A stretch of DNA of 53,691 nt, counting the filler, from Bipalium vagum (Eukaryota), in assembly GCA_037834085.1 (NCBI GenBank). It is 3 parts of 3 records of this genome, joined end to end, with 100 filler letters (N's around TTAATTAATTAA, not from the genome) between each part and the next. Parts side by side here need not be neighbours in the genome. Positions count along the whole stretch, not along the records: positions 34,587 to 53,691 come from JBBMKC010010070.1; 2 more parts are not named here. One strand, 5' to 3'. Positions 459 through 53,691 of the stretch are shown one piece after another. Position 1 is the first letter of the stretch, and the number at the start of each line of letters is the position of its first letter. The notes below the pieces were generated by a model. The model saw only the letters and a list, made by a program, of their open reading frames with translations, had not been told where the DNA came from and did no database searches. Made by a program: the position numbers and the translations under genes.

Positions 459-537
459 TAGTACCCTGGTGAAAGGTCATCTTGAAACTCCTATACATAT
501 ACATGTATATGCTTATACGATTATATATAATATTCAG

Positions 538-9500: not shown

Positions 9501-12500
9501 TAATTTTATATAATCCATACAAGATTTTCCGTAATCTTCTATGGCTCCTTTTCATATAATTGGTAGATCCGTAATCCCTTTTTAATGGACATTTTAAAAT
9601 GTCTAGCTAATTTTTTTTTATTTTGAGCTTTTTAAATAAACTGTAAATACATGTTTGAAGAACATTTGCATAACACGTGGTATGGCGTTGGTGAGCGGCA
9701 GAATAAGTTTATGCCTTTTTTCTAAAAAAAGGCTGTTTAACATCGCTCCGCTCATTATTTAACGCTCCCAACAGTAAGATTCCGTTATAATAATGTTTTC
9801 AGGCTTGAAAAATGAATTGTGAATAAATGTTTCGCCATCATAAACTTACCATAATTTTGACAGAGTTAATGTGTGCTTTTGCAAGGGTCCTTGACACTCA
9901 AGATCTCACGAACTATTGTCTTTTTCTTTTGTGATTCTCATAAAAGATCGTTTTTTCATCGCTAGTGTCACCTCTAATTTTCATTAGTTATGTGTTTAGT
10001 TCAATTCATAGAGATTCAATACGTTAAACTTCTTAACATATTCAATCTTTTTAATTTTATAACATGCGCTTGCTAAGATTACCTGAAACTTTAGCACAAA
10101 ACACAAGAGAGTAATCAATGGTTCAGTTTTCACTTCCACCTGCAGAACCTCTTCATTAATTATAAAAAGCGGTTTTCTAGGAGTTGATCCTTTCCTATTA
10201 AAATCTATTTTGAATAATTTTCAAAGCCATCGTCTTATTGTTCGTTTGCAGAGTTATCTCATCAAAATCTTTCATTGATTCTTTGATTGTTTTCGTTTCA
10301 TCAGGACTTTTTTGAAATGAAAAATAACCCGAATATCTTGTTTAGATAATGTTTTTATATGAAAAACAAGGTAAGGTTGACTTATCACATGATGATGTCA
10401 TAAACAAATTAAAAAATAAGATTTCAAATAATCACGTGAAAGAAATCAAATAAACAAGTGCTTTTAACAATGATATCAGTTGCCAACTTTTTAATAAGTC
10501 GAACATTTTTAATGGAAAAAATTGTTATCCTTGTTATTAATGTTTAATGCTTTTTCTCATAAAATGTTTCAGTACAATGCTTAATATTTTTATATGATTA
10601 ATAAAAATTTTTTTATTAAAATAGCTCTCTTTTCGACAATATAAAGGACAATATTGTGGTACGGATGTACCGTCAAATCTTACATCATTGTTTACCAATA
10701 GTTCTAAAGTTGTAATAAAATTGGTCGGAAATTTTACAACTTCCTCACCATTCAGTGGTTTTCAATTAAAATATAGTCTGGAAGACGTTGAAGAATGTGG
10801 AGGTAGTCATTATCTAGCACATCCAGATGATTACTTGGTAATAACCAATCCGAGAAACAAGAGTATTTTCTCTCCTCAGTTCATTGAATGCCAGTGGATC
10901 ATAAGATCAACTTATGGATCTCGATTTCAGATTGACTTCGAAGAAGTTTTTATTAGTGGGTAGGAATCTTTATTCATAATTCCGCTTTGATATCAATCAT
11001 CATTCAGTAACTGTGTTCGCAGTTACTTAGCTTTTTATGATGGATCTACGATCCTGTCTCCGAAAATTGGTGGTTCTAATTATTGCACTAAAAAGAGTAG
11101 TATTTTCTCGTCCGGGAATACCCTGCTTGTAATATTTAGAAACATTAACCGCGGTGTAAAATTTCAAATTAGAATAAAAAAGAGTAAGTAATAAAGTTTC
11201 TGTTGGATAAAAAATATTTTGTTAAATGTAATAATTTTTTTATTTTCAAAATCATTTTACACTTCAACTTGGTTCAAATATAATTATAATTATAATAATA
11301 AATTAAGTATTATTAGTAAATTATAATGTTACGGGCTTATGCAGAAATATATAGAAAAATATTCAAAATATATAGAAAACTATTCGATTGTTTATATTTG
11401 AATTCGATCGAGTCTTAGTCAGTTAAAGTACTGTCTCAAGAATCTGTTTATTTATTAAATCAAATTTGTAGGCATATTAAGGTTCGAAATCAAAGACGGA
11501 TCTTTCTATGGAGGCAGATTTACGGACTGTGACTGTTTTATTAGTGACAAGCTATGCAATCATTTCGATCAAAATCCTGGGGATGTATTGATGATGGACA
11601 ATTGCAGGTTCCATCACCGCAAAGATGTTATGAAGTTGATTAAAGATTTCTACCACCATGCTCACCTCAACTAAACCAATTGAAGAGTTTTTCAGCAGCT
11701 TGTAAGTCGCAAATATCATCCTTTGTGAGATCAGAAAGATTTAAAAGAGTTGATTACACAAGTACTCATGCATGACGATATCGATTCAAGTGGTTATTTT
11801 CGCAACATGAGGCGGTTTATAGAAAAAACCTTGACGAGACAAGAATCTATTTGGTGTACATTTCCACTCTTGTAATTGTTATGAAATTTTTTCCTATATT
11901 TTTCTGCATAACTCTGTATTACAATATTTAATCAAATTAAATAAATATTTTGTTTTAATAATGATTTATTTTGATAATAACCATTATTTGAATGAATGTT
12001 TTAAAATTAAAATCACGTTAAATCATATTTAATGAATTATTGTCAATATGTTTATCTTAAAGAATTGTTAAATAATTGGTTAAATAATATTTTCTTTTTT
12101 CAAGCCTAAATTTCTTCAAAAAAAATATTTCAATTTCTGACCAATAAAAATTTATTAAATTTGAACAGTAAATATTGCTAATACTTATACTAACCGAAAA
12201 TGCAAAAACCCAAAGAATTTACGAATAGATTGTATTGTTACCCAACTAACCATCCAATAAAGTTCAATTGGTCCCACTACCACAATATAAGGTATGCAAA
12301 AGAGTAATTATGGTATTTAACCATATACTTCAAAACTTCATAACGTTATTAAACAAAATAATTTTCATCTGAATTAACAAATTTTTCCCATGTATTAACA
12401 AGTTTTATATATACCAGTACGATAAAGATCTGAATTCTGAGAACCAAAAAAGTTTACAATATCGTTTTTTAATGAGTCATCAGAATTACAGATTTTATTT

Positions 12501-15239
12501 CTTTGAAAATTAGATAAACATAAAAACAAATACCCTAAAATCCTGTGTATAACACGCATATATATAAACACATAATGTGAACCAGTAATATTCCTGAACT
12601 ATTTACCATTCGATCAATGAAATGGGGGACTTGGTGTTAATATGCTCCATTCTGCCAGTCGATGGTAGCCTTAAAATCTGTAACTGAGAGGAAATTTTAA
12701 AAGTAATTGATTGAACTGAACTGGAGCAATTCGTAATGGACTATTCCTTGAAATTCCACCACACAAAAATTACCACTTGATCAAAGTACTTTAAAAACTT
12801 AATGTTTTGTACAAAGGAAAACAAAAAATTGATAAAATCATAATACCCAACGGTTCTAAACTACCGTTTGTGGATGTAAATCTCTCTCGTCAATTAGAGC
12901 ATGTTCCTTAATGCAAACCATGATACTAAGTTTTCGAATGAAGCAATGGGTATAAAGAAATTTGACACCTTCAAAGCTTGGATAAATATCAATAGGGTTA
13001 CGCTTTCAAAACTGACAAAACTATATTTTTTGAAAATGAAAATATTTCCTGCAACATTATGTTTAACATTAATCAATTTTTCAGTTGAAATGAAGACATA
13101 TTTTACTTTCATTAAGGTTTATGTGGTGGACTGCTCTACAAGTCTCAGGGATCTATCTCTAGTCCTAATTATCCACACAATTATCCAAGCATAGTAAATT
13201 GCACATGGTCTGTTAATGTCAGACGGTCCAATCTCATTACAATTACCATGATGGATCTCGATCTCGATCGGAACTGCTCAAAATCCAATCTGAGGTTTCT
13301 GAACATTGAACAACCAGATCAAAGTATTTATTTTGCCTTTTTTTTTCATTTTCCATAGTATTATTTGAACAGCTGTAGTCTGGAACAATTGCAATCAGTC
13401 CACTCTTTTTTTCCATGTTCCAAGCAGTCAAGTTAAAATAATCTTTACCACGAATACCACTAGGACGAAGAAGGGGTTTAAGTTGAATTATCGTTCCAAA
13501 TACTATAGTAATCACGCTATTATTATCATACTTTCGTAATAACATTTCTAGATTGTGATACGAGTTTTAAACAGCCTTCTGGTGAGGTTAAATCTCTAAA
13601 TTATCCGGGGGTCTTGCCTCCTTATATGACTTGTCACTGGCGTATTGAAGTTGATATTTCAAGAAGAATTTCCATACAAATAAAGGACATCAATCTTAGA
13701 ACAGGATGCATCTTTGTAAATTTTATAATAATGATAATAATAATATTATTAATAAAAGTAATAATAAAAATAGGAAAAAAAATAATAATCTAAATAATAC
13801 TTTGAGTGCAAATCTTAATTTTTAGGAAGAATGTCTTTAATTGATTGTAACTAATAATAATTTTTACTTTTTTCATTATTTTTTTTTCGTTCTTACTGTT
13901 ATAAATTTTGATAATACGTTCATAGGTGTATATACTTATTTTTCATAAAAATACACCACTAGTAAAAATAAAACCGGATATATATGTGATGAAATTGCGT
14001 GAACTTATTGAATTTATATTGCAAAAATTTAGAGATATCTTGTCTTACGATACAATTTTAGATTCTTGTTGGCATGCTATTAATTAAAAGATTTATTCTC
14101 CCTGAGTTATGTTGTTCCATATCAGCAGTTGAAGGTGGTTTTTAACTCATTCAATGCTTTTGGAGCAGTATGTGAAGAGCGTGGTTGATGACCCGTGAAA
14201 TATGTTTCCACTTCCGATTCTTTCAAAAACTTTACTGTTATACTACCAGTTGCCTTCACTAGTGCTTTCTTGTTGAAAACTAATCTGAAGTTGTTTTCAT
14301 TAATGGAAGTAAAATGGGTCTCAAAATTTTAACAATTCTATCGAAGAACATTCAAATTAGATCTGATACGTACAAGTAGTGACCGGAATCCAAAGCATAT
14401 GACATCCATTACCATAATTTCCAAAATAATTTTCTTGCGCATTGGTATAAGATCTTGACAAAATTTTGTTGTTTGCCACTGTAATGGATTCATTACTAAG
14501 GATAATGTGATTTCATTCATCACTTCAATTCTGTCTTTCTTAACAACAACTATACCTGCGGCTTTATGATTTAATGTCAATGGTAAATATGATTTTGGAA
14601 GATATGAACGGGAATGTAAATTTTTATGGTCGGCATAAATCTATCTCTAACATGTATGGGATGAAGGTTTATATCTTTACGTTCGTTGATGCTTTGATGT
14701 TGTCAACTTCTACTGAGACAATGCTGGAAGCTTTCTTCACACCTCACATTTCATGTCCTTAATATATTAAAATTATTTATTCCTCCAAATCCAGCGATAC
14801 TATTGACACTTATTCCACTTTCATGAAGTCCTGCTATCCAATTGTTAAATTTAATATGAGTACTTCTTATCATTCATGAATTATTAATTTACCTATTTAA
14901 ATGATACCCATACAAAAATATGGATATCTGATTAAATTTAACAACAGAATTCAATTCCAATTCTTTTTAAAATAATATGTGATACGTTTATATTGAAAAT
15001 AACATATAATGAAAAGACATTTTTAAAAAAAGTACACTTTATTTGAAATTTTATTTCAATTTTTCATAATTTTTTCCGTTTTAAGATAAGAGGACTCTAT
15101 ACTAATTACCAAAAATTATTTTGCAACGTCTTGTTTCGGACCATAGACATAGAAACAACTGTATCAGCGGTAATGTTTTCCATATTCGGCAGAAGCAATA
15201 ATCGAATATGGTTTACGTATCATTCAGAACTGCCATCTT
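538..15239 (+). CDS. CUBN: Cubilin-like tandem CUB-domain protein, partial (5' end upstream of window; about 8 CUB domains)
   Basis: GT-AG, phase-compatible exons: 538-663, 711-974, 1022-1154, 2244-2467, 2512-2702, 3650-3815, 6011-6232, 7197-7352, 7407-7597, 10625-10959, 11008-11183, 13117-13323, 13373-13507, 13552-13715, 15086-15239. They join into a stop-free frame with repeated CUB motifs (CGG...SPNYP...CEW, SPFYP...CIY, FCG, GFxLxY). The third domain lacks its first Cys pair, as I recall for cubilin CUB13; orthology needs a search. Confidence 0.8.
2969..3293. repeat. Imperfect ~44-bp inverted repeats (MITE-like) inside a CUB-gene intron
   Basis: AAGACTAAATTCGGATTGGCCCGTTTTGTTTTAACAGACTAATT (2969-3012) vs the reverse complement of 3250-3293, AAGTTGAAATTCGGTCTGGTCATGTTTTGTTTAAACGAACTATT. 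Confidence 0.5.
4100..4890 (+). mobile_element. pogo/Tigger-like transposase remnant
   Basis: Frameshifted CENP-B-type HTH (HRWFSIARSQG; FSASSVWLQKF...NISEYTIS) and the first DDE motif YELKNIFNADD...FKILPDE. Confidence 0.65.
4900..5380 (+). mobile_element. maT/DD37D-like Tc1/mariner transposase remnant (3' half)
   Basis: Fragments SKSPACVMIFCVISSEGD, NTVVKPWM, LDYYLWGVIEAEVN...SLRDAM, RLEEVAAANGGHFE*. Confidence 0.65.
6545..7051 (-). mobile_element. mariner (Mos1-like) 5' remnant
   Basis: ORF 6904-6704 MSTFKPSKEHLQEVLIYYF...VYG...RFRSNDFSVKEKERSGRP continues past a stop into ENHDLQNLLDED. TIR-like AGGGGTACAAATAAATAATG near 7050. Confidence 0.8.
8090..8800 (-). mobile_element. Merlin (IS1595/ISXO2-like) transposase remnant
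   Basis: Minus-strand fragments KIG*PGLIVEKDE, INPGIIIHSD, GAY, ATVNYNEYFIDQIT match the ISXO2 consensus GGPGxIVEIDE / PGTxIHSDxWxAY / TVNHSxxFVDPxTG. Confidence 0.6.
9490..10380 (-). mobile_element. Decayed mariner transposase
   Basis: Fragments LSKQDIRVIF, CKRTIRRW, TSDEKTIFYENHKRKRQ (consensus VTxDEKWIxYxNxKRKxQW), KIMVSL*W; many frameshifts. Confidence 0.6.
11332..11916 (+). mobile_element. Internally deleted IS630/Tc1-like element with TIRs and TA target-site duplication
   Basis: About 35-bp imperfect TIRs (CGGGCTTATGCAGAAATATATAGAAAAATATTCA / CAGAGTTATGCAGAAAAATATAGGAAAAAATTTCA), TA at 11330-31 and 11917-18. Internal VLMMDNCRFHH...FLPPCSPQLN..IEEFFS. Confidence 0.8.
14030..14880 (-). 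mobile_element. Decayed Tc1-like transposase
   Basis: Fragments IAGLHESGIS, ERKDINLHPIHVRDRF, LPLTLNHKAA...DE*NHIILSNES (WxxVxFSDES), ILRPILLP. Confidence 0.55.
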
Positions 15240-36530: not shown

Positions 36531-36650
36531 AAGATTTTTATAATATTCATCCTCATAAATTCTGACAAAATAATGTTTTTTGATTTATGTTTTAAAGCTT
36601 GGATCTCGGTTGATATTATGAATTTCTACACTTATCATTGACAATAATAT
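36531..36650 (-). repeat. Dispersed ~110-bp homologue of 45820-45934 (Polinton-region ORF fragment)
   Basis: The reverse complement AGTGTAGAAATTCATAATATCAACCGAGATCCAAGCTTTAAAACATAAATCAAAAAACATTATTTTGTCAGAATTTATGAGGATGAATATTATAAAAATCTT aligns along its length with 45833-45934. Confidence 0.8.
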
Positions 36651-37679: not shown

Positions 37680-40639
37680 ATGTTTAACCTTTTAACTCTC
37701 TTTGTTTTTGTACATGCCGTTTTATGTATAGATAAACCAAGAGGAATTCCTTTTTCAAGTAATAACTTATTATTTGTAAAGAAAGATATAACTTCATTTA
37801 AGAATTATCATTTTACCAACCAAATTCACCATTTAAATGCCTTGATGGATCGGGCATAATCAGTTGGTCAAAGGTAAACGATGATTACTGTGATTGTCGC
37901 GATGCCACTGATGAGCCCGGTACATCGGCTTGCTCTAATGGTGTCTTTTATTGCGACAATAAAGGCCATAAATCACAATATATTCTGTCATCTCGTGTTA
38001 ATGATGGTATTTGCGATTGTTGTGATGGACAAGACGAGTATTTTGGAATTATCAATTGTAACAACACCTGCTGGTATTTTCGTTATATTGATTCCTGTTA
38101 AATTGCTCTGAACAGGGAAATGGGTGCCATTGCAAGAGAAGAAGTAAAACGGTTGAAAGAGGCTGCTGTTAAGGGACACAAAATATATCAGGAATACATC
38201 AAAGACGTAAGTGTTGCGTTATCATTATTTTGTTTTCTCACTGAAATCATTTAAAGCACGAAGTTTCTGTGTCTGAAAAGAAGTCGAGACTTGAGGCGAT
38301 AAACGAGCAGTTCAAAGTTCTTAACGAGGAAAAGCTGGCTGCCGAACGAGTCAAAACTGACGCTGAGCTGATTGAATCAGATTCCAAGAGAACGTTTGAG
38401 GAAAGCTGGAAAAAGGCCCAATCAGAAAACGAGACAAACCAAGAGTTGAAGAGAACAACGAAAGCGTTCAAAGAACTCGACACAGATAAAAATGACAGGT
38501 ATTCACTTTATTCCCTGTCCACAGTTGACATTCTATCCATCGATTGGCAGAGTGTCAATTGACGAAATACAGAACCACCACGAATTCGATATTGATCAGA
38601 ACGGAGAAGTATCGATCGAGGAGGCTAAAGTAATTTATTGATTTAATTTTCTAATCGGTGATAGCAGTCATTGTTTTCATCGCTTGGATCGTTAGCAAGA
38701 TCAATTTTTTCACCAACCAATTATATTGAGAGTTTTCTTTCGATTATTTCCAAGGAATATTTAAGCGAGCATGAATCGGTCGATGAGATTCAATTCATGG
38801 AATTTGTCTGGCCCAATATCAAACAGATTTTCAAGTTCAAAGACGATCATCAGCACGACGTCCATTCTGATGACGACAATACAGATGCCGCTACCTCTAG
38901 GGAACCGAGTGGCGATCAATCGGCAGAGGAGGACAAGAAATTGGAAGACAGCGTTCAGACCAGCGGCGCAAAAATGGAATATGACGAGGAGACGTTGCGA
39001 ATCATCTCGAGTTAGGATTTTGTTTGGTTGTTGAACGAGGCGGAATCGAAAGAGAGTAAACGGATTTTATCGATTAGTTTTTTCCAGTGGCCGATGAAGC
39101 CCGAAAATCGTTTGAAGAATTGAACGAGAAATATACTAAATTGGAAAATGAGAAAAAGTTTGTTGATATTATTATATTGATTTGAGATAATGTTGGTTTT
39201 TTGAAAATATAGGTTGGAGAGCACTTTAAAAAATTATTATTCAATTAAAATATTATCTAATATTCAATTGATGTTTAATAAAAAGTCATTATCAGAAAAA
39301 TAATGGCATATAATTAATTGTTTTACAATCAGTAATCTTCAATGACCAATTAATTTCCGTTTATTGATATTGAATTTGATAACGGTTTCAAGTCCATGTA
39401 TTGGAATTAAAAATCTATATTGTTACAATCGGCAATCTACAGATCGTTAGATAAATCTGAATCTGCTTAAACGTTTTTTTATAAAAAATGAGAATTATTT
39501 TTCACTAAAATATTGATTTTGTTCCGTTTTGATTTAAATACTTTCTGATAATTGAAAGAAAAATCTCTTTATTCTCAAAGTTTCGTGGTAGACTTACGAT
39601 TTTTTGAAAAACTTGATAATCTCAGTATCTATTGAGATGTCTCAATAAAAAAATTTTCTCTCCTGCCGATGAAGTAGCTTTAGACAAATAACAGTTAACG
39701 TTTATGTTTTTTCAAACTCCTATTGATAGTTTTTTAAATATTTCATGAAATCTAAACCTTTGATTTGTTAATTGTGAAAGACATTGCCAAAGCGATACAA
39801 AAACCAAATCAGTCTTTTCTTTTCAATAATCCTTTATTGAAAATTAATCTCCAAGGTGACACTGTCTAATATAGTAATTATCGATCGAATTTGATCACAG
39901 TGAAAATCCACATTTACAGAGATCGATAATGTGGGACAAAGTTGTCCTCTCATGCCTGCAGTGGCATTATATTATTCGTTACAGCTGGTACATGTACGTT
40001 TTCATGGTAACACTTATTGAATTTTCAATGTGAAAAATTGTTGTTTTAATTATTGATTTCCCCTATCGATCGATGTCAATATTAATTGTATTTAAAATGT
40101 AATGAATAATCAATAATCCGAATGAAATAAAATTAATCAATACTATAGGAACATCGAAATTCTGCTCAATCTCGATTACGGAAAGAATCCGGCATTCTTC
40201 AAATTGGCTGAGGATGAAACGTGTTACGAGCTCGCCGATCGGGAATACATTTACAAAATGTGCCCGTTCAAAAAGACCAGTCAAATGTCGAAGGATTCTT
40301 CCTTCGAAACCGAGCTTGGTCGATGGGGCCATTGGATGAATGACGATCAATATTCCACTCAAATCTACGACAACGGTTTGGCCTGCTGGAATGGACCGAA
40401 TCGGCAGACGAAGGTTTGTTTTTTATCGATTTTTTAGTTCTGTCACTGACTTGAATTGTTAATTATCGTTGGTTTTCAATTGAAATCAATTTTCGGTTCA
40501 GGTGCAAGTTATTTGTGGCGTGGAGAACAAATTGACGGAAGCATCGGAGCCAAGTCGGTGCGAATATTTATTTAAATTTGAAACGCCTTCCGCATGTACA
40601 AAAACACCAGATCAATACGATGAGCATGACGAGTTGTAG
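37680..40639 (+). CDS. PRKCSH: Glucosidase II beta subunit (PRKCSH / 80K-H), complete, about 496 aa
   Basis: Exons 37680-37758, 37803-38073, 38116-38206, 38257-38498, 38551-38629, 38755-39010, 39088-39157, 40149-40413, 40502-40639 (1491 nt). Signal peptide; KPRGI; FKCLDGS...[20 protein letters not shown]...[17 protein letters not shown]; EF-hand-like loops ELDTDKND and [13 protein letters not shown]; acidic stretch; MRH domain (EYIYKMCPF...CWNGPNRQT...EPSRCEY); C-terminal HDEL*. Confidence 0.95.
39400..39980 (-). mobile_element. Possible LINE RT remnant in PRKCSH intron 7
   Basis: Decayed TDLVF..AFGNVFHN and [11 protein letters not shown] fragments (consensus DxxxxDxxKAFDxVxH; VNxxxSxxxxxxSG). 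Confidence 0.3.
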
Positions 40640-41329
40640 ATCGTTATTCTAACCGGTCATCATAGCAACATGTGGTGTGTAAATTATTGAATTATTTGGG
40701 CTTAATTTTTAAAAATAAAATGTGTTAAATAAACAAAAAATGCTTTGGCCTCCTTCATTTTTGTCGACAATTTCTTTTGTATGTGCTTCAATTTGTTTTG
40801 TTTAAAATATTTTTAATTAGTCGATATAGTTCTTAAAATTGATTTCTGCCGTGTTTTGTGCTGGTTTTTTCTTTTGTATTTCTTTTTCTCACCAACTCTT
40901 CCGTTGAAAACGTCTTAAAATTTCCATTTTTATCTGATATATTGTGATCTGGACTTAAATTATCTCTGTAAGTAGCGATTTATATCAGCAAGTGGCGGAA
41001 TAATGGTGTTTGTTTTCTTGAACTGGAATCTTTAAATTGATAAATGTTGATATCTGAAATAGAATCGCGATACTCCATCGTTCTGTGTGCTGATTTTTAA
41101 TAATCATATTATTATACTCTGGTTTTTCGTTTTTGTCAATGGAAGAATTTGTTTGGATTAGTTCAACTTAAGTAAAAATGCAACCACATAATTTTCAGGA
41201 AAGCTAATTAATTCATTTTATATATATAATGACTAACAAATGTAACGATCATGGAATCACTGAATTTGAATTTTTAAGAATTCTAAATGACTTTATGTTA
41301 CCGTAAGATTATGAATTGGATCATGTTAT

Positions 41330-42200
41330 TCTTTGGAAACTTACATATTTTAAGTCAACATACTTATCGACAATAGCTAGTGAGAGCCATATACTGGAAA
41401 TCGGAAACGATTATTCTGAAAGGATTGAGACTGGTGGAGAACACGCCCGTAGGCAAAGGAGGTTTACAGATTTTTTAAGTAGAGTGTAATCAAGTGAATG
41501 TGATTGCAGAAAGTGAAGAAACAGTTATTTCGCATGACAAATTGCAAGCAGGTCCAAGTGTGATGATACAAGTGCTGGATTTAGTATAAGATACAGATCA
41601 AGAACCAATGTAATGAGTAAGAAGATTGTCCAGAAACTGACAGATATCAGACTTCTACAGTATGGTAAAAATGAGATGATCAAATGACAGTTATTTAGAG
41701 ACAAGAGGGTCAATAAACGTTGAGGTTAGCGTTGGTGAAATTATTAAAATTTATAGTGGTAGAAAATTTCAAAAATAGATGCTATCCGAACATTTACGCA
41801 ACTCAAATGTATAAAAAACCTGAGAGGCTTTTTGGGTATATGCAATTACTATAGACGATTCATAAAAGGGTATGGGACACTTATGGGGAATAAATAATAA
41901 GAAATTGATTTGCACACCAAAGGAAATAAAGCTTTTGAAGAACTAAGAGGCACTGATGCCCAGCCAATATTATGATTTCTAGATATTAATTCTTGATATT
42001 GATGCAAATTTCGAAACTATTGGTGCACTTTTTCACAGAAAGATTCAAATTATAATGAAAGATTGGTTACATAAGTTTCACACTCAACGAAGGCTCGTGA
42101 AAAAGATTACTGTTAGACACGGGAAGATCTACTGACTGTCTTTCTTATTATTTATATGGTGAACTCTTCCCATTATGTATGGATTTTAAAGCAATAAGCT
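41330..42200 (+). mobile_element. Gypsy/Ty3 LTR-retrotransposon pol remnant (RT-RNase H)
   Basis: KNLRGFLGICNYYRRFIKGY; AFEELR; LDIDANFETIGAL; ERLV...EKDYC*TREDLL. Confidence 0.8.
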
Positions 42201-43159
42201 TAATTGTTACAAAAAATTTTCATTCGTTAGCTGAGATATCAACAAAATCAGTCATAGTTTGTAAAACATATTTTTAATGTCTTTAAAACAATAATACTCA
42301 AACAAATTTTCAATTCTTAAGAAATAAATTGTGCCATTAAATATCTAGATTCATCTCAATAAAAATTATTTTAAAATATATTAAAATTAAATGTACAATT
42401 TATTAAAAATTTAAAGTAAGCACAATGTAAAAATTAGAAATCAGTTTAAATATTCACAAGTTCAATAGTTCACTCACGTATATCACAAATATTAGTTTTT
42501 GGTGAATGAAAACTTCAATATCAATAAAAGGAAAGCTATAAATAACAAATTCACTTTTCAAATAAAAACAAAAGACTGTCATAAATAAAAAAAATGACAG
42601 ATTTTTATTCAAAATTAAATAATTGTAAATATTGTTATCTAACCCATATTAAAATTCATAGAAATATTCCAGAAAATAAAATACGATTATCACAGAAATA
42701 GAAAACAAGAAATCCAATGTTAAAATGTACACAAAATTTATATAATACCTTAAATAGAGCTTTAAAAGAAAAAAGAGAGTTAAATCATTCAGAAGAATTA
42801 TTTGGATTTAGTTTTGATTTTCTGTATGAATGAATTGAATTTCAATTTTATGTTGGAGTGACTTCGAAAAATTAAAGAAAATACTGGCATTTAGAGCGTG
42901 TTTTACCAATTTCAAAATTTAATTTAGATAATAAAATATATTTAAAAATTTTTATAATTGAAAAAATTAAAGACATTTAACTGTTCAAAATAATTTATCA
43001 AATAGTAATAAAGTAGATTTTTGGCAATATATATTTCAAAAAATTAAAGCAAAATATTTTATAAAGGAATATAAAAGGAAACGATAATAATTTTTTAAAA
43101 TACGTAATTCATTTTCACTATCTTTCTCAACTTTATTTTTTACTCTATCTGTTTTTTCA

Positions 43160-44712
43160 TTTTTTGTTTCAATATTAAACCTTTTTCCACCGATTATTTT
43201 TATTTCCATAAATTTTTCTATTACTAATAACAATTCGTTTTTCCTTTAAAATCTGAATCTTTTAAAATATATAAAGTTATAACAGCGCCATTTAAACATA
43301 ACATTTCTGGTTGATCATTTAAATCAAAATAACAGATAGAATATAAATTTTGTAAACCTAGTTGAGGATTATTGTTAAAATATTTACATGCTTTTACGTA
43401 ATTAGAATAAGTTCTATTATTTTTAAATTTTTCAAATTGTATAGGATTTAAAGGATAATAAGAATTATTAACTTGAACTCTTAAACATTTTTTATTTTGA
43501 ATAAACCAACTATTATTTTTGTGAAATTAATTTTAGATTCTCTAAAAGCAATAAATATACAAATTGGTTTATTTGATACACTATATAATTGTAATGTTTG
43601 TGTTGTTTCTTCAGTTAAATGTCTTTCTTCACAATGTCTAGATAAAAAATTTACATTTATCAATTTTCAATAATTTATTCTTGACCATAGATTTAATTTA
43701 CAAGATTTATTTAATTGTAATTCTGGAATAAATAGTTTCAAATCTATTAATTTTAATTTTGCATCTCCTTAGGGTCCATAAAATATTTTTTATCAATATC
43801 AATTTTTCTTGTAAATGGTAATTTTCCTTGCATGTTATAAATTACTCTCTTATAAAACTGTAAAAATCCAAACATTAATTTTAACCAAAATTCTCTTAAA
43901 AATTTGTTTTGTGAATACAATTTTTTTATTTCTTTGAATCCTTTATTATCTTTAGCTGGATCATCTTTAATTTTATCTGGTATCTAAAATATTATTTCTC
44001 CATTGTTATTTTTATCAACTGTGAAGTAATCAGTTATTAATCGAAAACCCAAGATCAATTCATTCATTACCAATCGATCAATCCCAAAATTTGGGTATCA
44101 ATTCCAAAGTCAACTACAATAATTATTTTAATTTTTTTTCAGATTAGAAACAATACTGATTATAATTTTATGATTTTACCAATTATATATAATTATTAAT
44201 TTTTTAAAATTTAAATAATAAAATAAATAAAATCTTACGCTGCGTCATTTGAAGAAACTGAAAGAACAGGATCGTCGGGGGTGGTTTGAAATAATAATAA
44301 TAATAATAATAATATAGGAGTCAGATTATAAAGAATTTGAGAAAAAATAATATACCCCATCATTCAAAAACCCAACACAATCATTAGAAAATTTGTTATA
44401 GAATTTGATGGACCACCGTTTTCAATTGTTTCTATTTCAGTGAAACCTAATTTTAAAGTTGTATTAGAAAATAAATATGGAAAGAAGTTCTTTTGTTAAG
44501 TTATTTTTTCGTCATTTTTTATATCTTGAATTTCAATTTTAAATAACATTGATTAATATAAAGATTTTGCTGATTGTAATAAAGAAAAATTAATATTTCT
44601 ATTATTATTTAAATTTGTTGAAATTGTTGGATTTAAAGAAATTTTTAAATAGTCACATTTTAGTTGTTAAGTCTTGATGATAATAATTTTTATATAGATT
44701 TAATTTAAACAT
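43160..44712 (-). pseudogene. Polinton-type double-jelly-roll major capsid protein, frameshifted, split by a 314-bp insertion
   Basis: NFFPYLFSNTTLKLGFTEIETIENGG; IPDK...DNKGF; LKLMFGFLQFYKRVIYN; LKLFIPEL; NKPICIFIAF; RVQVNNSYYPLNPIQF; LYSICYFDLNDQPEML. Confidence 0.75.
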
Positions 44713-44729
44713 TTTTAATAGAAAAAATT

Positions 44730-44964
44730 TGAAAAGATATTTTAAATGCTGAAGACATTATCATTTCTTCTTCTAAATTAATAAAAAATATATATTTTTC
44801 TCTCATGTGTAAATTGTATAAATCATGAAATTCTTCGTTTTCAAAAAATTAGATAAATTTTTTGAAAAAATTGGATCTTTATCTGATTTTGAAATTTTAA
44901 ATAAAATTAAAACATTTTCATTATTTCTTATATTTATTAAAGATAAATCAAAAAATGAATTGAG

Positions 44965-45000
<36 letters not shown>

Positions 45001-45380
45001 AATATTTATTATGTCTTCCTCTTGTAAAATACATTTCTATAAAATTTTGATTTTTTCATTTATTACATCATCAAAAACAATCAATTTTTTTAGTTTAATC
45101 TAATTTATCTGGTGAAGGAATTTTAACAGATAATTATTTATTATCATTATTTTCCATTAATTTCTGGCTTTATTTCTTTTTTTAAATTGTTCTCATTTAA
45201 ATTTAATTTTAATAATTCATATTTTGGTGGATTTTCTTGTATCAAATATTTTTTTGATGTTTTATCAAATCTTTCATTTCATTATTTTCATAAAAAATTC
45301 AATCTTTTTCATTTTGTCTTCATTTATAAATCTTTTAATTAATAAGATTTCATAAATTTTTATTCCTCTTGTATTAAAAA
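44730..45380 (-). pseudogene. A32/FtsK-like DNA-packaging ATPase, 5' (Walker A) part missing
   Basis: KIPSPDKLD..KKLIVFDDV (Walker B); IEMYFTRGRHNKYSIIY(IY)nISQ; SFFDLSLINIRNNENVLILFK. Confidence 0.8.
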
Positions 45381-45409
45381 TAAAATTATTATAAAATTAA
45401 TATAAAATT

Positions 45410-45720
45410 GTTATCAATATTTGAGCCAGGCCCACAGAAATTTGCGACCGTATTTGTTTTATTAAAAAGATTTTTAGATTTTAAATGTAATTCTTCTGGA
45501 TATTTTCCTGTTGGAAATTTATTTAAAAATTTATTATTAAATGTTACCATCTTTTTTATAAAAATTTGGGATATTTTTAATTTTTTACAATTACTTTTTT
45601 TAGTAATTTTTAGTACTTTTTTCATTATTACTCTTATCATTAGTACTTTTTATGATGTTTACTCTTATTATATTTTGAAATACTTTTTTTACAATCTTCA
45701 CAAAATTATGATTCAGTCAT
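45410..45720 (-). pseudogene. Truncated zinc finger + PLA2-like gene (copy A)
   Basis: ATG 45720 MTES*FCEDCKKSISKYNKSKH; then FLNKFPTGKYPEELHLKSKNLFNKTNTVANFCGPGSNID. Stops before the catalytic HD motif. Confidence 0.75.
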
Positions 45721-45787
45721 TTTTTTTAAAAAAAATAAAGATAAAAAATTTTTTCATATATTTTGTAAAATCAAAATGTTATTTTCA

Positions 45788-46200
45788 ATGACAGACGATG
45801 TGTTAAATTCACATTTAAAATAATACTATTGTAGTGTAGAAATGCGTGAAATCAATCAAGATCCAAGCTTTAAAATATAAATAAAAAACATTATTTTTGC
45901 CCGAATTTATGAGAATGAACATTATAAAAACCTTTGTAATGAATAAAAAATAATATCATAAATAAAGAAATAAAGAATTGCAAAAAGCTATTCAAGAAAT
46001 TAGAGAGGAAAATTAATTAAAAATTATAAGCTTAAAGAACAAATAAAAAATTTTAAACATACAATTGAAAAACTTAATACTGAAATTAAAAGTATAGTCT
46101 CACATTAAAAAAAAGATAAAATGAACAAAATAATGATTTTTTTGATTTTAAAAACAAATTTGAAAAAGGTGAAAATTATTAATACAAGACTTAAATAATT
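45788..46200 (+). pseudogene. Decayed hypothetical coiled-coil ORF within the Polinton region
   Basis: Fragments RIYENEHYKNL, NKELQKAIQEIREEN, SLKEQIKNFKHTIEKLNTEIK; diverges from copy A. Confidence 0.4.
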
Positions 46201-48517
46201 AAATGTAGAAATTTTTAAAAATTCAGTTTTTTGTAAGATATACCGCAGTTTATATACGGGATTATACGGTAATACTGTTATTTATGACATTGTATTCCTT
46301 TAATAATGATCTTATTTTTTCTTGATTATTCTAATTTTAATGAAAAAAGTTCGATATGGAAAGGTAAAGGAGAGTAAGAAGAAACTATAAAAATAGAACC
46401 ATCATTAAGTAGAAAAATAATAAAGACAAATACAGCGGTTAAAAGTTATTCATCTATTCATGTGGCGTAGATTCTTTACTATTTAAATAATATTGTAGAG
46501 ACTACTCCCAGGCAAGGAAACAAAAACGAATTGATCCAAACTTTAATGAAAACTTGAATTTAATGTTGTAAATTTTGTGATCCGAATCCTTTAATCTTTT
46601 ACAAAACCTATTATGTAAATCCTTTAAAAACCTTATTATGTATATGCATGTTATATTAGTATTTGGTATAAATTTTATGTGTAAATAATTTAATTGATAA
46701 ATCCCGAAAAAATAATTAATTAATAAAATATAATTAATACTCATAGAAATAATAAATAAATAAAAATAATTATAAATTTAGGAAAAATGATAAAGCTAAT
46801 TACTAAAAATAAAAATATTAACTAAATAACGAAATAAATAAATAAAAAATTATATAAGTAATAAATATAGTAAATTTATATTCCTATAAATAAAAATATG
46901 TAAAAATATTAATAAAATTAAAAACTTAATAAACAACAGAAACACCTAAAATACGAAAAAACCAGAGAGCAAAAAAAGTCTGCATTATTCATCAATTAAA
47001 AGCGAAGTTTAGATATCAGATTACTTCATAAAAGGGACAAATCGTCAAATTGTAATTGGATATTTTCGCAGTTATTAAAAGGAATTTTTTTAAATCGTCA
47101 AATTACCTCTGACAGGACAGTGTCAGATTACTAGGATACTGAGTATAAAAGCAAACAATCCCAAGCAGAAAAAGAGGAATTAAAATCGAAGACACGAAAC
47201 AGTATCTTACTTTTGTTGAAGACAATTCAAAATATTTAATTCGTATTCCGATTTTGAATTATTAAGAAGAAAGATATTTTCATTCTGGTATTTTGCAAAT
47301 TATAAGTGTTCAATCCGGTGCTCCATAATTCAAAGATAGCCAGCAGTAATTATTTTATTTATTTTAATCAAATCATAAATAGCAATTTGATTTAAAATTG
47401 TATATTGTGATTATTAAATAAAGTATAAAGTCTTGAAACTAACTCAGATAGAATAATTGGATAAATCCCCAATTATTATATCAATATCAAAATAAAAATC
47501 CTTTTTGTTGTGTTTTCCCTTATTTTCTTTTTATCGCCTTCTCTACGCCTATTATGGCGGAGAGGCGCCTGTTTCTTTTGAGGGCTCTTGAGGCTAGGTT
47601 AGCGAAGAGCAAACTAAATTCTTTCTTAAAAACTTAACTACCGGGATTTACCAATTAATATACAACATCTGTATTTTGTTTTATTTGTTTGTTCAACAAA
47701 AATTAAAAATTTATAATTATAAATTTAATAACTTGTTTTAATTTGCGTTAGTGGATAATTTTTATTTAAACCTTATGAAGTGTTATCGAATCATTTGTAT
47801 ATTTTGATCAGTTCGATTTGATTTTATTATTTGCATAATCTTTTAAATACCTAGTCGATTAAAAATAATTATAATTCATTTTTCTTTTATTTGAACACGA
47901 AGATTAACACACAAAAGGAACCCCGTTTGTACCTCATTTTTTCCTCACTCATTCGCATATACGCCTCTCGGCGCACACGCTCATTCGTTTGTCAAAAACC
48001 TTTTTAACAAATAAGATCCCCTTTGTGGGGCATATAAAATATAATTTTTTTCATACACATAAAATATACCAAAAAATCAAAAAATAATAAAAAATTTAAA
48101 ACTGAAAAAATCAATTTTTTTTCAAAAATGGAAACTAAAAGAAACGATTTAAATAACCTATCCAATCTAGAATTAAATAAAATACAAAATAAATTTCCAC
48201 AACATAAATATTATGAAATATATTTACGAGCAAAATCTTTTAATTTAGAATAAAAATATTTAAAATCTTATTCTAAAGATTTATTATGGTTAATAGATAA
48301 TTGTACATTTGACTCATAAAAATAAAATAAAAGAACAACATAAAAATCTGAATGATATAATTTTTTTAATTATTCTAAAATAAATAAAGAATTAAGTGTG
48401 GAAATATTAAAATTTTATCAAGGAAAATTAATAAAAATTTTAAATAAAACTCAATAATTAATTTTATTAATTTTTTAATTATAATTATTTTTTAATAATC
48501 TTTTTTTTCCTAAAAAA

Positions 48518-49850
48518 GTGGTAGAAAAATGGTATTGCGAATTTTGTGAAAAATCTATTAATAAAAAAAATAAAAATCATTTTGAAAATACAAAAATACA
48601 TGAAAAAAATATACAACGATTTAAAATAAAAAACAACTAGTAATAAAAACGACAACGACGAAAAATCAACAATATCTACGAATAAAAACAACGACCTAAA
48701 AAATTTTATCAACGACTAAAAATAAAAATCTAAATATTCAAAACATTCAAGAAAGATTTCCATCTTTTTTTATAAAAACAGGAGGTGACATACAATCACA
48801 AATTACAAATAATAATTTTTTAAACAAATTTACAACTGGAAAATACCCAGGCTAATTACATTTAAAATCTTAAAATCCTTTAAATAAAACACATCCAGTT
48901 TCAAATTTTTGTGGACCTGGAACTCATGTTGATAAACGTTTAGAAAACTATAATTAAATAATAAATAAATTTAATGAAACAGGTGAATTAAATATCCTTC
49001 CAAGTCCAAAACCTGATTCAATTCCAATAAATCGAGTTGATGCAGCAGCAATGAAACATGATGTAAAATATATGTCAACAGATTTAAAAGATAGACATGT
49101 TGCAGATGTATAAATACATGAAATGAACCATATTCAAAATCCAACTCCAAGAGAAAAACTTTATTAATTTTCAATTGTAAAATTAATTATGAAAGGAAAG
49201 ATAGCTTTAGGATTAGGTTTACCAAGAAAGTCAAAAAATTAGCAACTGAAAAACTTTTCGAAAATTCAAAAATTCTTCCTCCTGAAAAAAAAACAATTAG
49301 CAGATGAACTTCATAAAGAGTTTAGAAAAACTAAAAATTTCATAAAAGTTCAAGTTAATAATAAAGATGATATTTGGTCAGCAGATCTTACATTTGTCCC
49401 AGGAGAATTATAAAATAATTCTAACAGTTATTGATTTATATACTAGTTTTGCTTTTGCTGTTCCTTTAAAAAATAAAACAGGTCAATCAATTACAAATGC
49501 TTTGGATAAAATATTTGAGGATTCTAATAGAGTTTCAGAAAAACTTTGGGTTGATAAAGGTATTATTAATTTTATATTAAAAAATTTGAAGAATTTTGTG
49601 ATGATAATGAGATTGAAATTTACTCAACAGAGAATAAAGGAAAAGCATTTTTAATAGAAAGACTTAATAAAACTTTAATGTTCAAAAAATTTACAGAACA
49701 AATAAATAGAAAATGTTTACATCTTTTACCAAATTTAATTAATTTTTATAATAACAAAATTCATTCATCAATTGGAATTTCTCCAAATGAAGCGAGTGAA
49801 AATCCAGAAAAATTAAAAGTTATAAAAGAAGACAGTAGAAAGTTATAAAT
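48518..49850 (+). pseudogene. Zinc finger + parvovirus VP1u-type phospholipase A2 + retroviral-like (rve) integrase (copy B)
   Basis: WYCEFCEKSINKKNKNHFENTKIH; NFCGPGTHVDKRL; PINRVDAAAMKHDVKY..DRHVAD; NPTPRE; KGKIALGLG; QLADELHK; DDIWSADL; YKIILTVIDLYTSFAFAVPLKNKT; KLWVDKG; KAFLIERLNKTL; YNNKIHSSIGISP. Several stops and frameshifts. Confidence 0.9.
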
Positions 49851-50006
49851 TGAGCAAGAATATGTTTTGGTTTATAAATTTTATAACCTTCTTTTGCTCT
49901 TTCTATTTCATCAAGTCTTTTTATTTGGTTTTTAATATGTTTTATATATCTATTGAAACAGAAATTTAAAAAATATAAAAAGGAAATTTATTATCTTAAA
50001 GGAGAA

Positions 50007-51725
50007 TTAAATAAGACTGAAGAACTTATGAAAGTAATGAATGTAAGTCTTATTTTCTGTTGTATTGAAATAATATGGAAAATATCTTTTTGAACTCTTG
50101 AAACCAAATGTATTAGGAAAAGCTTTTAATGGGCATAAAGTAAAGTTTATAGAATCAATAAATCTTATATTAAAATATTTAATTTTCATAAAAGTAATTT
50201 TATTAACAGAACTCAATTTTTCAATTGGCAACTTATTTTTAATTAACCAACCTAATATTGGATGATTATCATAACCTTTTGCATAATGAGCTATAAAAGT
50301 ATTTTGTTTGAAATCGTCACTAATGAAACATTTACAGAAGATATCAATAAAAGAGTTTGAATTTTTTATTGTTACATCTTTTAAAAATTCAATATTATTT
50401 TGAATATTTTCAATTGTTAAATTTTCTAATTCTAATTTAATTTTAAAATATGAAATTTTGTTTGTTTGTATTTTAAAATATATTTTTCTTTCAGTATCAT
50501 AAGCTATTGCGTAATTCATGTCATGATAACCTGCATTTTCTTGAGTAGACTCAAAATCAAAAAATAAATATTTATTACTTTGTTTAAAATTTCCTTCATT
50601 ATTCATATTTATTATCCTTCGTGATTCATAAGCTTCATTCCAAATTGGACAATTTTTACAACCACGTTTATGATCAGATCTATTATAATATTCTTGTTTT
50701 TGAATTTCTATAAGTTGTAACATTATCTACATTACATTTATGTTGATTTTGAAATCCTAGTAAACATTTGTGACAATATTTTTGGGATTGTAAAGAAGCT
50801 GATATTTTTGTAATTGAAATAAAGTGAATATTTTCTTGATCATAAAATATAAAACTTTGTTTTTCAAAATTTTCATTGCCTCTATATAAAATAGAATTAT
50901 TATTATTATGATGATAAACTATAATTCTTAAATTTAAATAATTTTAAATCATCAATATTATTACCATTTTATTTAATTTATACTTGTGCCATATTGTGTA
51001 ATTTTATAGCCCATTCTTCTTCAATTCTATTTCCTCTATTATCTTTTTCTCCAAAATTTAAATAATTTTTATTTGTGAAATAATCATAAGTTAAAGAAGT
51101 TATTATTGTCCTAGCCAAAAAAAGTGTATTATTATTTTGAATTATATTAATAGAATTTTTTGTAAAAGTTTGTAATATTAAATTTGAAGAATTATTACCA
51201 TTATAATTAATAAATATTTATTTCCCTTTCCTTGAGGTATTGATATTATTAAAAATTCAAAAGTTACGTCTTTAATATTTATTTCTACAGCAGATTGTAA
51301 ATTTTTTTCTAATTTCGAATATAATAAATTAGTTACATTATCTTTAGCTGTTAAAGGAAATGAACCATGTTTTGAATAAATTATAGGATGTAAGTGTTTT
51401 AGTTTAACTCAATAATTACCTGAATCATTTGTAACGGTTTTTAAAATAAAATTTAAACAACTACGAACATTTTTTGAAGTTTTATCTGCTGGTGAAATCT
51501 TATATCAAAAAGGGAACCAAGATGTTTTTTATAATAATGAGAATTTTAATAATGAATCAAATTACCATCTACTATTTCTGTTGTCTGATTAAAATCATCG
51601 TGAAATAAATTATCTGGAAAAAGTCAATTTTCAAAAGGTAAGTTTTCATTTATAGCTTGCCATTCATCAATATTAAATTCTGGTTTCGCTATCTTTTTTT
51701 GATTAATACTATTTTCGCTTGCCAT
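50007..51725 (-). pseudogene. Protein-primed family B DNA polymerase (pPolB), N-terminal and exonuclease part; polymerase domain missing
   Basis: ATG 51725; LEKNLQS...IPQGKG; LARTII; YCHKC; ExoI YLFFDFESTQ; ExoII FIAHYAKGYD; IRFIDSINF..LKAFPNTFG..SKRYFPYYFN; homology ends at about 50040. Confidence 0.9.
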
Positions 51726-51831
51726 TTTTTTAAAGAAAAAATAAAAATTTTAATTTTTGATTTTGAATTTTTATTATTGTTTTGATTTGGATTTTTTAAA
51801 ATTTTTATTTTTTAATATTTTTTTATTCCTC

Positions 51832-51921
51832 TTATACAACCAATTTAATCTGACAACACCGATAAATAACCAATTTAATTTCACAACCCCATTATACAAC
51901 CAATTTAATCTCACAACCCAA
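51832..51921 (+). repeat. 30-bp tandem repeat x3
   Basis: TTATACAACCAATTTAATCTGACAACACCG / ATAAATAACCAATTTAATTTCACAACCCCA / TTATACAACCAATTTAATCTCACAACCCAA. Confidence 0.9.
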
Positions 51922-52167
51922 AATTTTTGGACAAATTAACACAACACTGAAAAATGAATATTTTATAAAATAAATGAAAAAAATTAATTAAACCAAAGAT
52001 TTATAAAATTTTATCAATAACAATATTTCATTAAATGAATTTTCTTTGAAGTAAACAATCTTCCGCATGCCCACAAATATATAGCCTAAATAAATAATAT
52101 AAAAATATATTATTTTAATAATTATTACCTTTATAAGTATATTTATATTGATTTTAAATCCAGAAAT

Positions 52168-52302
52168 TCAAGAACCTGTTGACATTGTCAATTTGCAGTC
52201 AGCACAGATTTGTTCAAATTGAATCAATCCTTTTCTTCTTAGCCAATCAAACAAATCAAGATTGCTGAAAACTGCTAATTTATCTAAAAATGATGGCTCC
52301 AT
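52168..52302 (-). mobile_element. Possible Merlin transposase N-terminal fragment
   Basis: MEPSFLDKLAVFSNLDLFDWLRRKGLIQFEQICADCKLTMSTGS* (WLxxxGL...CxxC...M pattern typical of Merlin/ISXO2 N-termini). Confidence 0.5.
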
Positions 52303-52349
52303 TTTCCTTATTTTCTGACTATTACTAGTATCTCTAACTATTTATAGTT

Positions 52350-52415
52350 CAATTAAATCTAACAACCACTTTTTACAACCAGTTAAATCTGACAACACTG
52401 GTTAAATCTGACAAC
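52350..52415 (+). repeat. Three further copies of the TTAAATCT(G/A)ACAAC motif related to 51832-51921
   Basis: CAATTAAATCTAACAACC / CAGTTAAATCTGACAACA / GGTTAAATCTGACAACA. Confidence 0.75.
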
Positions 52416-53149
52416 AACTAAAATTAAATAAATTAAATAACTTTTTCTTATAGTTATGTGATATTTCTCTGATGAAATTTAAAGAATTAACATCTAATTT
52501 AAAATTAAATTATTCAATAAATAGAATTTCAAAATTATTTTTATAAATTTTTATAAAATTTTTGAATAATTTTTTAAAATAAATTTTGTTTTAATATAGA
52601 TAAATTTCCAAAATGGTTGAAAAATATTTGTTTATGGTTATTTATTAATGATTATTAATTATGGTTATTATAAATTTCACGCTTTTATTTTATAGTTGAA
52701 ATAGAAGTCATTCCAAAATAAGTAAGTTGTTTTTATTAAATTAAGTAAAAGTTTATTTCATATATGATTATTCATTTTTACATTTTCAAGTGTTATTTAA
52801 TATTTTGATTTCTTAATAATGATATGAATTCAATAATTATTTCCGTTTCAATTTTCTTATCAATAAAACTGAAATTATCAAAAAATTGTACATACCACAT
52901 TTGGATTTTTTCAACCTATAATTAATATTGGTCTTAATTTCCGTCACAAAAATGTTTTCAGAGTTGACATAAACTACATAGTATGAAAAATTTTAATTTG
53001 TAAACAAATTTTTTAGAGAGAAAGTGTATTTATTCTTACACCAGTCTTGTCATCGAAAGTAATATGGAGTTTGAAAGATTGATTTTACGAATATTTAAGG
53101 ATAAACCTTGATTTTATTAAAAATAAGACTATTGATCGACAATAAATTG

Positions 53150-53560
53150 AAATAGAAGTTCACATTTATTACAGTGTTGATGATTTCATGTCATACAAAT
53201 ATCTTCAATTCTTCAGGATGGCAGCAGCACATCTTCGGAATTTATGAAATTTTTTCTTAGGTTCTTTTTTTAGAAGACCAGATTTCCCTTTATGAATAGT
53301 GGTGTCATCACTGATTGAATCTATGAAGCAGTAAAAGTATGGTGCACATTTCCAAGCGACTCTAACTGAATCTATGCAGCCTATTGATCAGAAATTAAGA
53401 TTTATTCTGGTGCTACCATTTTTTGAGTAATTGGTAATAATGCTTTGAACCAAGTTTCAAAATATTACACTAACCATTTTTCGTTAAATATCGTTCATTC
53501 CACATATCCAATATTTCACAATATGTCCAACATTGCATTTCCTTCTAAAAAAAACCGCAT
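53150..53560 (-). mobile_element. Merlin (ISXO2-like) transposase remnant
   Basis: ALLPITQKMVAPE*ILISDQ*AA*IQLESLGNVHHT...FIDSIS (consensus TLxPxIxxxVxPGxxIxSDxWAAY...HxTVNH...FVD). Confidence 0.55.
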
Positions 53561-53619
53561 ATTTCATAAAGTTTATATATTTGATTATGGGTTTATATAT
53601 TTGTTTATGAGTTTATATA

Positions 53620-53691
53620 CAGGGTGTTCGATAAGTCACTCCGGGATTTTAAAATGGTATTAATCTAAAACAAAAGATAACTGAAAGAGTT
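53620..53691 (+). mobile_element. Left TIR of a Tc1/mariner-type element running off the window
   Basis: TA|CAGGGTGTTCGATAAGTCACT, the same CAGGGTG terminus as 32182. Confidence 0.55.

Follow-up and report, generated by a model that had tools for sequence, protein, structure and literature searches.

The region at 43160–51725 of the analyzed window, a stretch of 53,691 nt from Bipalium vagum, is on sequence grounds a decayed Polinton/Maverick relic of the alpha-adintovirus type (Group 2). Relics of five genes (pPolB, integrase, PLA2, capsid, and ATPase) lie inside it, all of which exceed chance similarity. The PLA2, integrase, ATPase, and capsid relics all match one intact-looking element, L013. 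We give a probability of about 0.5 to the reading that two related insertions of this type, arranged head to head and each probably reduced by a large deletion, left these disabled genes. The initial annotation had described a fossil Polinton/adintovirus-like virus with five pseudogenes. The general identification held, with pPolB, rve, PF08398, DJR-like, and A32-like relics present, and all five pseudogenes proved real by homology to Polinton proteins and shuffle controls, but the PLA2 is two genes rather than one.

Every one of the genes (capsid, packaging ATPase, integrase, pPolB, and the two PLA2-like genes) is disabled. Besides stops and frameshifts, large losses truncate pPolB, the ATPase, and the integrase, and replication, packaging, and integration are impossible for anything in this region. 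The alignment paths contain ten stops of all three types, facing six different residues, and a neighboring host gene ends in HDEL followed by a stop; these observations indicate decay and led us to reject a changed genetic code. Introns were also rejected as the cause of the breaks, as single-base shifts and stops appear to predominate.

The main block of the major capsid protein (double jelly roll) pseudogene lies at 43160–44080 on the minus strand and contains at least two frameshifts, based on alignments to PF21738, L013, and capsid profiles. In a frameshift-tolerant comparison, residues 156–417 of the L013 capsid aligned at 43950–43227 with 27% identity (z 23.7, matched by 0 of 40 shuffles), and profile alignment of this block gave z 21.8. 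The gene is interrupted at 44080–44385 by approximately 300–350 nt that include an (AAT)8 run, as deduced from the tandem repeat and from the block spacing (about 435 nt here, about 28 codons in L013). Beyond the interruption it extends to approximately 44650, which had been overlooked before: an N-terminal block with stops (44385–44654, minus strand) was recovered with residues 39–128 of the L013 capsid (at 44630–44385, z 7.4) and with a three-sequence profile (z 12.2, 0 of 50 shuffles).

One of six capsid pieces submitted to Pfam matched PF21738 (DJR-like, E 1.3e-4), below the cut-off. The capsid C-terminal ORF had no match among nine protein database candidates, a mixed ATPase/capsid frame had none among 8,000 scored, and two capsid ORFs gave matches of at most 0.80, or none, in the ESM Atlas. 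The PLV-type capsids of three further loci (L007–L009) also missed the window capsid. The double jelly roll is supported at the sequence level; AlphaFold models had mean pLDDT values of 42 and 53, too low to be of use, and the capsid model (53) had no Foldseek match at E ≤ 0.001.

Directly adjoining the capsid gene is an A32/FtsK-like packaging ATPase (44737–45266, minus strand), of which only the part after Walker A is present. Walker B and an RGRH motif are visible, and frameshifts and a (TA)16 run lie inside. The stretch 45266–44827 (minus strand) aligned to Pox_A32-family proteins with z 13–18 (14.2 in one test); once the motif used to find the compared proteins was zeroed, z was 6.3. The N-terminal half gave z 0.9. 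Residues 110–252 of the L013 ATPase were matched at 30% identity. Five pieces had no Pfam match, and no Walker A pattern was found in 42000–53691. A natural PLA2–ATPase fusion was considered and rejected because Walker A is absent. Among 72 tiles of the window, the capsid and ATPase profiles peaked in this region (scores of 98 and 71 vs. medians of 30.5 and 27), where they align colinearly over 240 and 140 aa, respectively.

Two zinc-finger-PLA2 genes were found on opposite strands. Copy b (PLA2X-like; 48515–49240, plus strand) is full length, with a CGPG loop, an HD motif, and five in-frame stops in its PLA2 part. This part (approximately 48780–49240, plus strand) scored 26.3–26.8 bits against PF08398 (cut-off 23.9), and copy b is 40% identical to the L013 PLA2 over 140 aa (z 23). 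Its zinc finger has weak Pfam matches (E 0.02–0.1); its tail, where the PLA2X of alpha adintoviruses has a pX-like domain, also aligns to the L013 PLA2 and has no Adeno_PX match in Pfam. Copy a (45410–45725, minus strand), missed in the initial annotation, shows clear similarity that stops just past the CGPG loop. It matches copy b at 82% over 128 nt, its zinc finger is 54% identical to that of copy b at the amino acid level (z 7–11), and it aligns to residues 127–152 of the L013 PLA2 with z 4.8.

Within the PLA2 core, 23 of the 128 nt differ between the copies, and only 2 of these 23 differences affect the second position of a codon (P = 0.03 by chi-square test, P = 0.006 by binomial test). 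Because the differences avoid second positions, the two copies probably diverged while functional, the test being based on 23 differences. Identity declines from 82% in the core to 66–73% in the flanks, where shuffles give 62–67%. The examined ORFs of each of five PLA2-bearing relatives included one PLA2 gene, at least two of these relatives (L008 and L010) being partial contigs. The matches listed in a literature search for two-PLA2 Polintons included none of relevance, which is weak evidence of absence.

Copy b is followed by an rve integrase pseudogene (49249–49827, plus strand) with two frameshifts. It is 40% identical over 188 aa to the integrase of another locus (L001), with 0 of 100 shuffles scoring as high, and 40–43% identical to Polinton integrases (43% to that of L013). 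Its Pfam rve match (E 1.9e-4) is below the cut-off. Residues 11–209 of 289 were matched, and the C-terminal third was undetected (z 0.6–1.5).

The 5′ half of a pPolB gene lies at 50043–51725 on the minus strand and includes the N-terminal region and the first exonuclease motifs; the polymerase domain is absent. Its 51545–50043 part (minus strand) aligned to two pPolB proteins (P0001 and P0002) at 43% identity over 475–483 aa, with 3–4 frameshifts and 3–4 stops. Residues 27–525 of 1,261 were matched, and the gene ends approximately 40% along its length. The remainder was absent at 49780–50060 and 45500–48800, and tblastn found none elsewhere in the window. The N-terminal region, which may correspond to the OTU domain of alpha-adintovirus PolB, aligns with that of relatives. 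Comparison of a stop-free pPolB ORF with 649 candidates recovered 13 relatives, the best with E 4e-48. The window piece matched PF03175 with E 7.6e-6, below the curated cut-off (its closest relatives have E 5e-26 and 9e-35). The relic pPolB is 47–51% identical to PF03175 proteins including those of Mytilus and grouped with Mytilus-type Polinton polymerases in a phylogenetic tree (support 100/99). Locus scans based on pPolB found nothing in viral contigs or prokaryote genomes and one locus among 580 metagenome stretches; some motif scans for relatives returned chance or giant-virus loci only, and others returned 1 Polinton among 5 loci and 3 capsid-bearing loci among 92.

The initial annotation recognized these genes without their truncations (pPolB at about 40%, ATPase without Walker A, integrase without its C-terminus). 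Pfam profiles, by which it was to be confirmed, succeeded for PF08398 but fell below cut-off for DJR-like, rve, and PF03175, with no match for the ATPase. Its failure to see penton and protease genes agrees with our result: profiles built from three distant sequences per gene did not rise above background in any of the 72 window tiles, and the genes may have been deleted or be too diverged. Terminal inverted repeats were not found above shuffles in the flanks or the middle (best 38–41 bits vs. shuffle maxima of 36–46), and there was no Rfam match in 42000–53691. No close intact relative was found, the capsid being only 27–30% identical to that of L013, the relative measured. In a search of sequencing runs, one run shared 0.46 of the words, and the matches listed included no RNA run.

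Several minor features were noted in and around the region, which is flanked by other transposon debris and lies downstream of a host glucosidase II beta gene. Just past the capsid 3′ end is a previously unreported endonuclease VII/HNH-like pseudogene with in-frame stops (42600–43060, or more narrowly 42600–43000, plus strand), which matches PHROG 1035 (“endonuclease VII”, E 7e-8) and had no Pfam, NCBIfam, or PDB match; the element may have carried it as an accessory gene. A dispersed repeat at 45833–45934, with an inverted second copy at 36531–36632 (86% over 103 nt), is probably not part of the virus. A broken ORF-like stretch from the ORF list (48128–48460, plus strand) lies upstream of copy b, has no Pfam, PHROG, or NCBIfam match, and has no counterpart upstream of copy a. 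Upstream of pPolB, a 30-bp unit is tandemly repeated three times (51832–51926); the array resembles 52350–52420 in direct orientation and may be an end of the element or of another transposon.

The gene set is that of alpha adintoviruses, which have a PF03175-type PolB, rve integrase, FtsK/A32 ATPase, DJR capsid, and parvovirus-like PLA2. As described by Starrett et al. (2021, PMC8502044), the PLA2 gene is characteristic of alpha-class virion modules, PLA2-bearing members come from many invertebrates including Mytilus, and a Mytilus element is among the alpha maps. Unlike the viruses described there, the relic has two PLA2 genes, all its genes are broken, and penton, adenain, and ITRs were undetected. 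A survey of invertebrate Group 2 Polintons reports more than 22,000 integrase-linked pPolBs of two classes in 960 and 164 genomes (Jeong et al., 10.1101/2023.08.22.554363). The relic resembles these Group 2 elements in that its pPolB groups with Mytilus-labelled PF03175 proteins, but it lacks the region of the nuclease insertion that, in that survey, separates pPolB1 from pPolB2.

L013 (from IMG/VR) and L077 (a contig filed in a bacterial MAG) are both intact-looking Polintons. In both, as here, a zinc-finger-PLA2 gene is directly followed by the integrase, and the other strand carries ATPase and capsid; relic identity to L013 is 27–30% for capsid, 30% for ATPase, 40% for PLA2, and 43% for integrase. 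Unlike the relic, they have one PLA2 gene and, separating ATPase from capsid, a penton-like gene plus four other ORFs; L013 in addition encodes a protease and a large PolB-like protein with no PF03175 match. Like the relic, the degraded Mavericks of vertebrates (Barreat and Katzourakis, PMC8097293) and a human chromosome 7 relic (PMC8502044) show stops, frameshifts, and large insertions; they have lost their TIRs, and none was found here. In the former account, such fossils make up 96% of 3,511 vertebrate loci and most lack TIRs; its main text does not contain the word “phospholipase”.

In the reading with two insertions, the living ancestor would, like its family, have had a linear DNA copied by pPolB and packed into a double-jelly-roll capsid by the A32-like ATPase; membrane entry would have relied on the parvovirus-like PLA2, and the rve integrase would have brought the virus into the germ line. 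The initial proposal that the ancestor formed virions can fairly be drawn from the capsid and ATPase, although no penton or protease was found. The left arm (PLA2 copy a, ATPase, and capsid) would have lost the 3′ half of PLA2 and the 5′ end of the ATPase; in the right arm (PLA2 copy b, integrase, and convergent pPolB), the loss would have taken the 3′ end of the integrase, the polymerase domain, and everything in between. The two arms would then have decayed, gaining microsatellites and other insertions. Two diverged PLA2 genes in opposite orientation with a truncation after each favor this reading and make the earlier view of a single virus doubtful. Both gene adjacencies have parallels, PLA2 to integrase in L013 and L077 and PLA2 to ATPase on one strand in L008–L010, and the higher identity of the core than of the flanks is expected if the copies diverged under selection. 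On the other hand, the layout, with capsid and ATPase leftward and PLA2 and integrase rightward, is that of the single elements L013 and L077, so that the relic could also be a single element carrying an additional PLA2 gene, and zinc-finger-PLA2 is the sole gene present twice. The absence of terminal repeats above shuffles, of a counterpart to the ORF upstream of copy b, and of a close intact relative also counts against two insertions, as does the small number of differences behind the codon test.

A somewhat less probable explanation is accordingly a single Polinton whose ancestor had two diverged zinc-finger-PLA2 genes, one heading each divergent module, and which later lost the ATPase start, a penton/protease block, and the polymerase domain. 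It accounts for the gene orientation and for five core genes that are complementary without any other duplicate; the codon-position bias suits paralogues as well as two viruses, and two-module layouts are described as normal for Mavericks (PMC8097293). However, a second PLA2 gene was seen in none of the five relatives examined, the starts of ATPase and PLA2, which abut in L013 and L077, are here approximately 3.2 kb apart with a host repeat between them, and at least three separate losses are required. We consider it improbable that, in one element with a single PLA2 gene, part of this gene was copied in inverted orientation once the element had integrated and overwrote the start of the ATPase. 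Copy a does end within about 145 nt of the start of ATPase similarity, and a rough stop-count estimate of several percent decay per copy is comparable in order of magnitude to the 18% difference in the core, but neutral decay of a duplicate predicts neither the avoidance of second codon positions nor the uneven identity along the duplicated stretch. An origin from unrelated mobile elements or from chance matches in AT-rich DNA is very improbable and, judging from the comparisons above, already largely refuted: despite the sub-threshold Pfam scores of capsid, rve, and pPolB, the ATPase without Pfam match, the three empty database searches with capsid or ATPase pieces, and the flanking debris, the capsid and ATPase, on which the initial annotation staked its identification, fit Polinton profiles best here and colinearly, and share with PLA2 and integrase one matching element, L013.

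The suggestion of an undescribed lineage remains unproven, as pPolB groups with Mytilus-type polymerases and PLA2-bearing alpha adintoviruses are already described (PMC8502044). It seems unlikely that the relic represents a distinct alpha-adintovirus lineage, with two diverged zinc-finger-PLA2 entry genes each heading a module, an ATPase directly before the capsid with no penton between, a free-standing endonuclease VII-like gene, and a small-intron animal host without described Polintons.

The region is an ordinary fossil of an already well-known type of DNA virus resident in genomes. With every gene broken, it has no bearing on virion formation by animal Polintons. It is a further host record of Polintons that bear PLA2, and the group had at least two PLA2 variants, either over the history of this host or within one virus. 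The finding would matter more only if the whole genome showed a two-PLA2, penton-less family, or if the family fell in an animal group with no known one.

All five pseudogenes in the initial annotation of 43160–51725 (capsid, ATPase, integrase, pPolB and PLA2) were found to be real, with homology evidence for each gene. The region has ~20% GC in an AT-rich window. Of 649 candidates, 13 proved related to the stop-free pPolB ORF (239 aa); the top seven show 47–51% identity, two of them with a Mytilus label. The relic at 51545–50043 (minus strand) aligned to residues 27–525 of 1261 of P0002, a PF03175-type pPolB, and carries 3–4 frameshifts and 3–4 stops relative to its two closest relatives. Alignment and tblastn search revealed no further similarity beyond this 5′ part, so the polymerase domain has been lost. 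In an exonuclease tree of 13 rows (one relative, P0010, was left out as too short), the window pPolB joined relatives P0001–P0007 with support of 100/99, but its branch is long and was marked as uncertain.

The integrase relic matched residues 11–209 of 289 of the L001 integrase (40% identity). The parvovirus-like PLA2 domain scored above the PF08398 cut-off at 48780–49240, where a CGPG loop, an HD motif and five stops are visible. A different genetic code was also considered; the ten stops analyzed comprise all three types and lie opposite six different residues, indicating decay instead.

Pfam detected a DJR-like domain in one of six capsid pieces (E = 1.3e-4) and nothing in five ATPase pieces; relatives were needed for these two genes. 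An ATPase-motif scan yielded five loci, all with Pox_A32 proteins. Against three of them the window ATPase reached z = 14.2 over shuffled controls, or 6.3 with the selecting motif zeroed; its N-terminal half gave only z = 0.9 against the same three, and no Walker A pattern occurs in 42000–53691. A capsid-motif scan led to L013 (one of five loci), an intact-looking Polinton with DJR capsid (E = 8e-56), ATPase, PLA2, integrase and protease. Its proteins matched the window with z = 23.7 (capsid, partly circular because L013 was chosen by capsid motif), 13.2 (ATPase), 23.1 (PLA2) and 54.9 (integrase), and 0/40 shuffles reached the observed score for each. The selecting motif lies outside both the capsid N-terminal block at 44654–44385 (z = 7–12) and the Pfam match. 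The capsid gene is interrupted by ~300–350 extra bases. Penton, protease and four other genes of L013 and L077, a second intact-looking Polinton, did not rise above background in 72 window tiles, the probes being distant.

Elsewhere, a PLA2-like domain and an adenovirus-type C5 protease domain share a single ORF in three Polinton-like viral contigs (L008 4130–5131, L009 9728–10726, L010 978–1976); in each, this fusion immediately precedes the ATPase. Beside the A32 ATPase of viral contig L007 (904–3500) lie an integrase of the rve-chromodomain type and a weak match to tyrosine recombinases. Capsid genes 53–75% identical to that of L013 occur in L077, L023 and L103, contigs that are filed in bacterial MAGs and are probably eukaryotic or viral contamination; L077 also has an ATPase, a penton-like gene, PLA2 and integrase.

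A second zinc-finger-PLA2 gene, overlooked initially, was detected at 45725–45410 on the minus strand (copy a). It is 82% identical to the plus-strand gene (copy b) over 128 nt, and the zinc fingers are homologous (54% amino acid identity, z = 7–11). Clear similarity in copy a stops after CGPG, and the first ATPase similarity follows within ~145 nt. The 23 differences between the copies fall 9/2/12 at codon positions 1/2/3 (chi-square P = 0.03; binomial P = 0.006), and identity in the flanks of the aligned core barely exceeds that of shuffles. Both genes therefore probably diverged while still functional.

Whatever its arrangement, the material is dead and Polinton-derived (probability about 0.95), as the initial annotation held, although with two PLA2 genes rather than one; the interpretation given there is supported in part. 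For the arrangement we favor, at roughly even odds, two sister elements lying head to head, each cut by deletion. A single element carrying two PLA2 paralogues is a somewhat weaker possibility, consistent with the overall layout common to L013 and L077. Duplication after integration is improbable given the codon bias of the differences. No terminal inverted repeats stood out from shuffles in the element flanks and middle. Based on known Polinton biology, replication in this family would be protein-primed and DNA would be packed by the ATPase into a DJR capsid, with PLA2-aided entry and rve integration; PMC8502044 gives the PLA2 role solely as the prevailing view for parvoviruses.

Around the relic, a glucosidase II beta (PRKCSH) host gene with apparent short introns occupies 37680–40640 (plus strand), ending in HDEL and a stop at ~40640, and CUB-domain exons at roughly 500–14000 probably belong to a cubilin-like gene. 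The host is taken to be an animal. Between PRKCSH and the virus relic lies a decayed sequence at 41200–42200 (plus strand), which we take to be LTR-retrotransposon pol-like from reverse transcriptase/RNase H-type motifs; it has no Pfam or NCBIfam match. An endonuclease-VII-like relic at 42600–43000 (PHROG E = 7e-8) had also been overlooked. A 103-nt dispersed repeat has inverted copies at 36531–36632 and 45833–45934 (86% identity), the latter between the arms bearing copies a and b. Two short GC-richer islands in the middle stretch (47500–48030) gave no Rfam match. A broken short ORF with a CxxC motif (51990–52302, minus strand), which looks like the beginning of a Merlin/ISXO2-type transposase, had no match in Pfam, PHROG or NCBIfam; repeats upstream of it, at 52350–52420, are similar to the 30-bp repeats upstream of pPolB and share their orientation.

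With its PF03175-type PolB and PLA2, the relic fits the alpha adintoviruses, which PMC8502044 bins with Group 2 Polintons and for which it gives maps from corals, Hydra, Mytilus, insects, spiders and nematodes. The pPolB1/pPolB2 classes of 10.1101/2023.08.22.554363 are told apart by a nuclease insertion in a region that this relic has lost. PLA2 genes are reported in Polinton-like viruses too (PMC11296320, PMC3671162), and 96% of vertebrate Maverick loci are likewise described as degraded (PMC8097293). The locus is a dead example of a known Polinton kind, with one small oddity, its two PLA2 genes.
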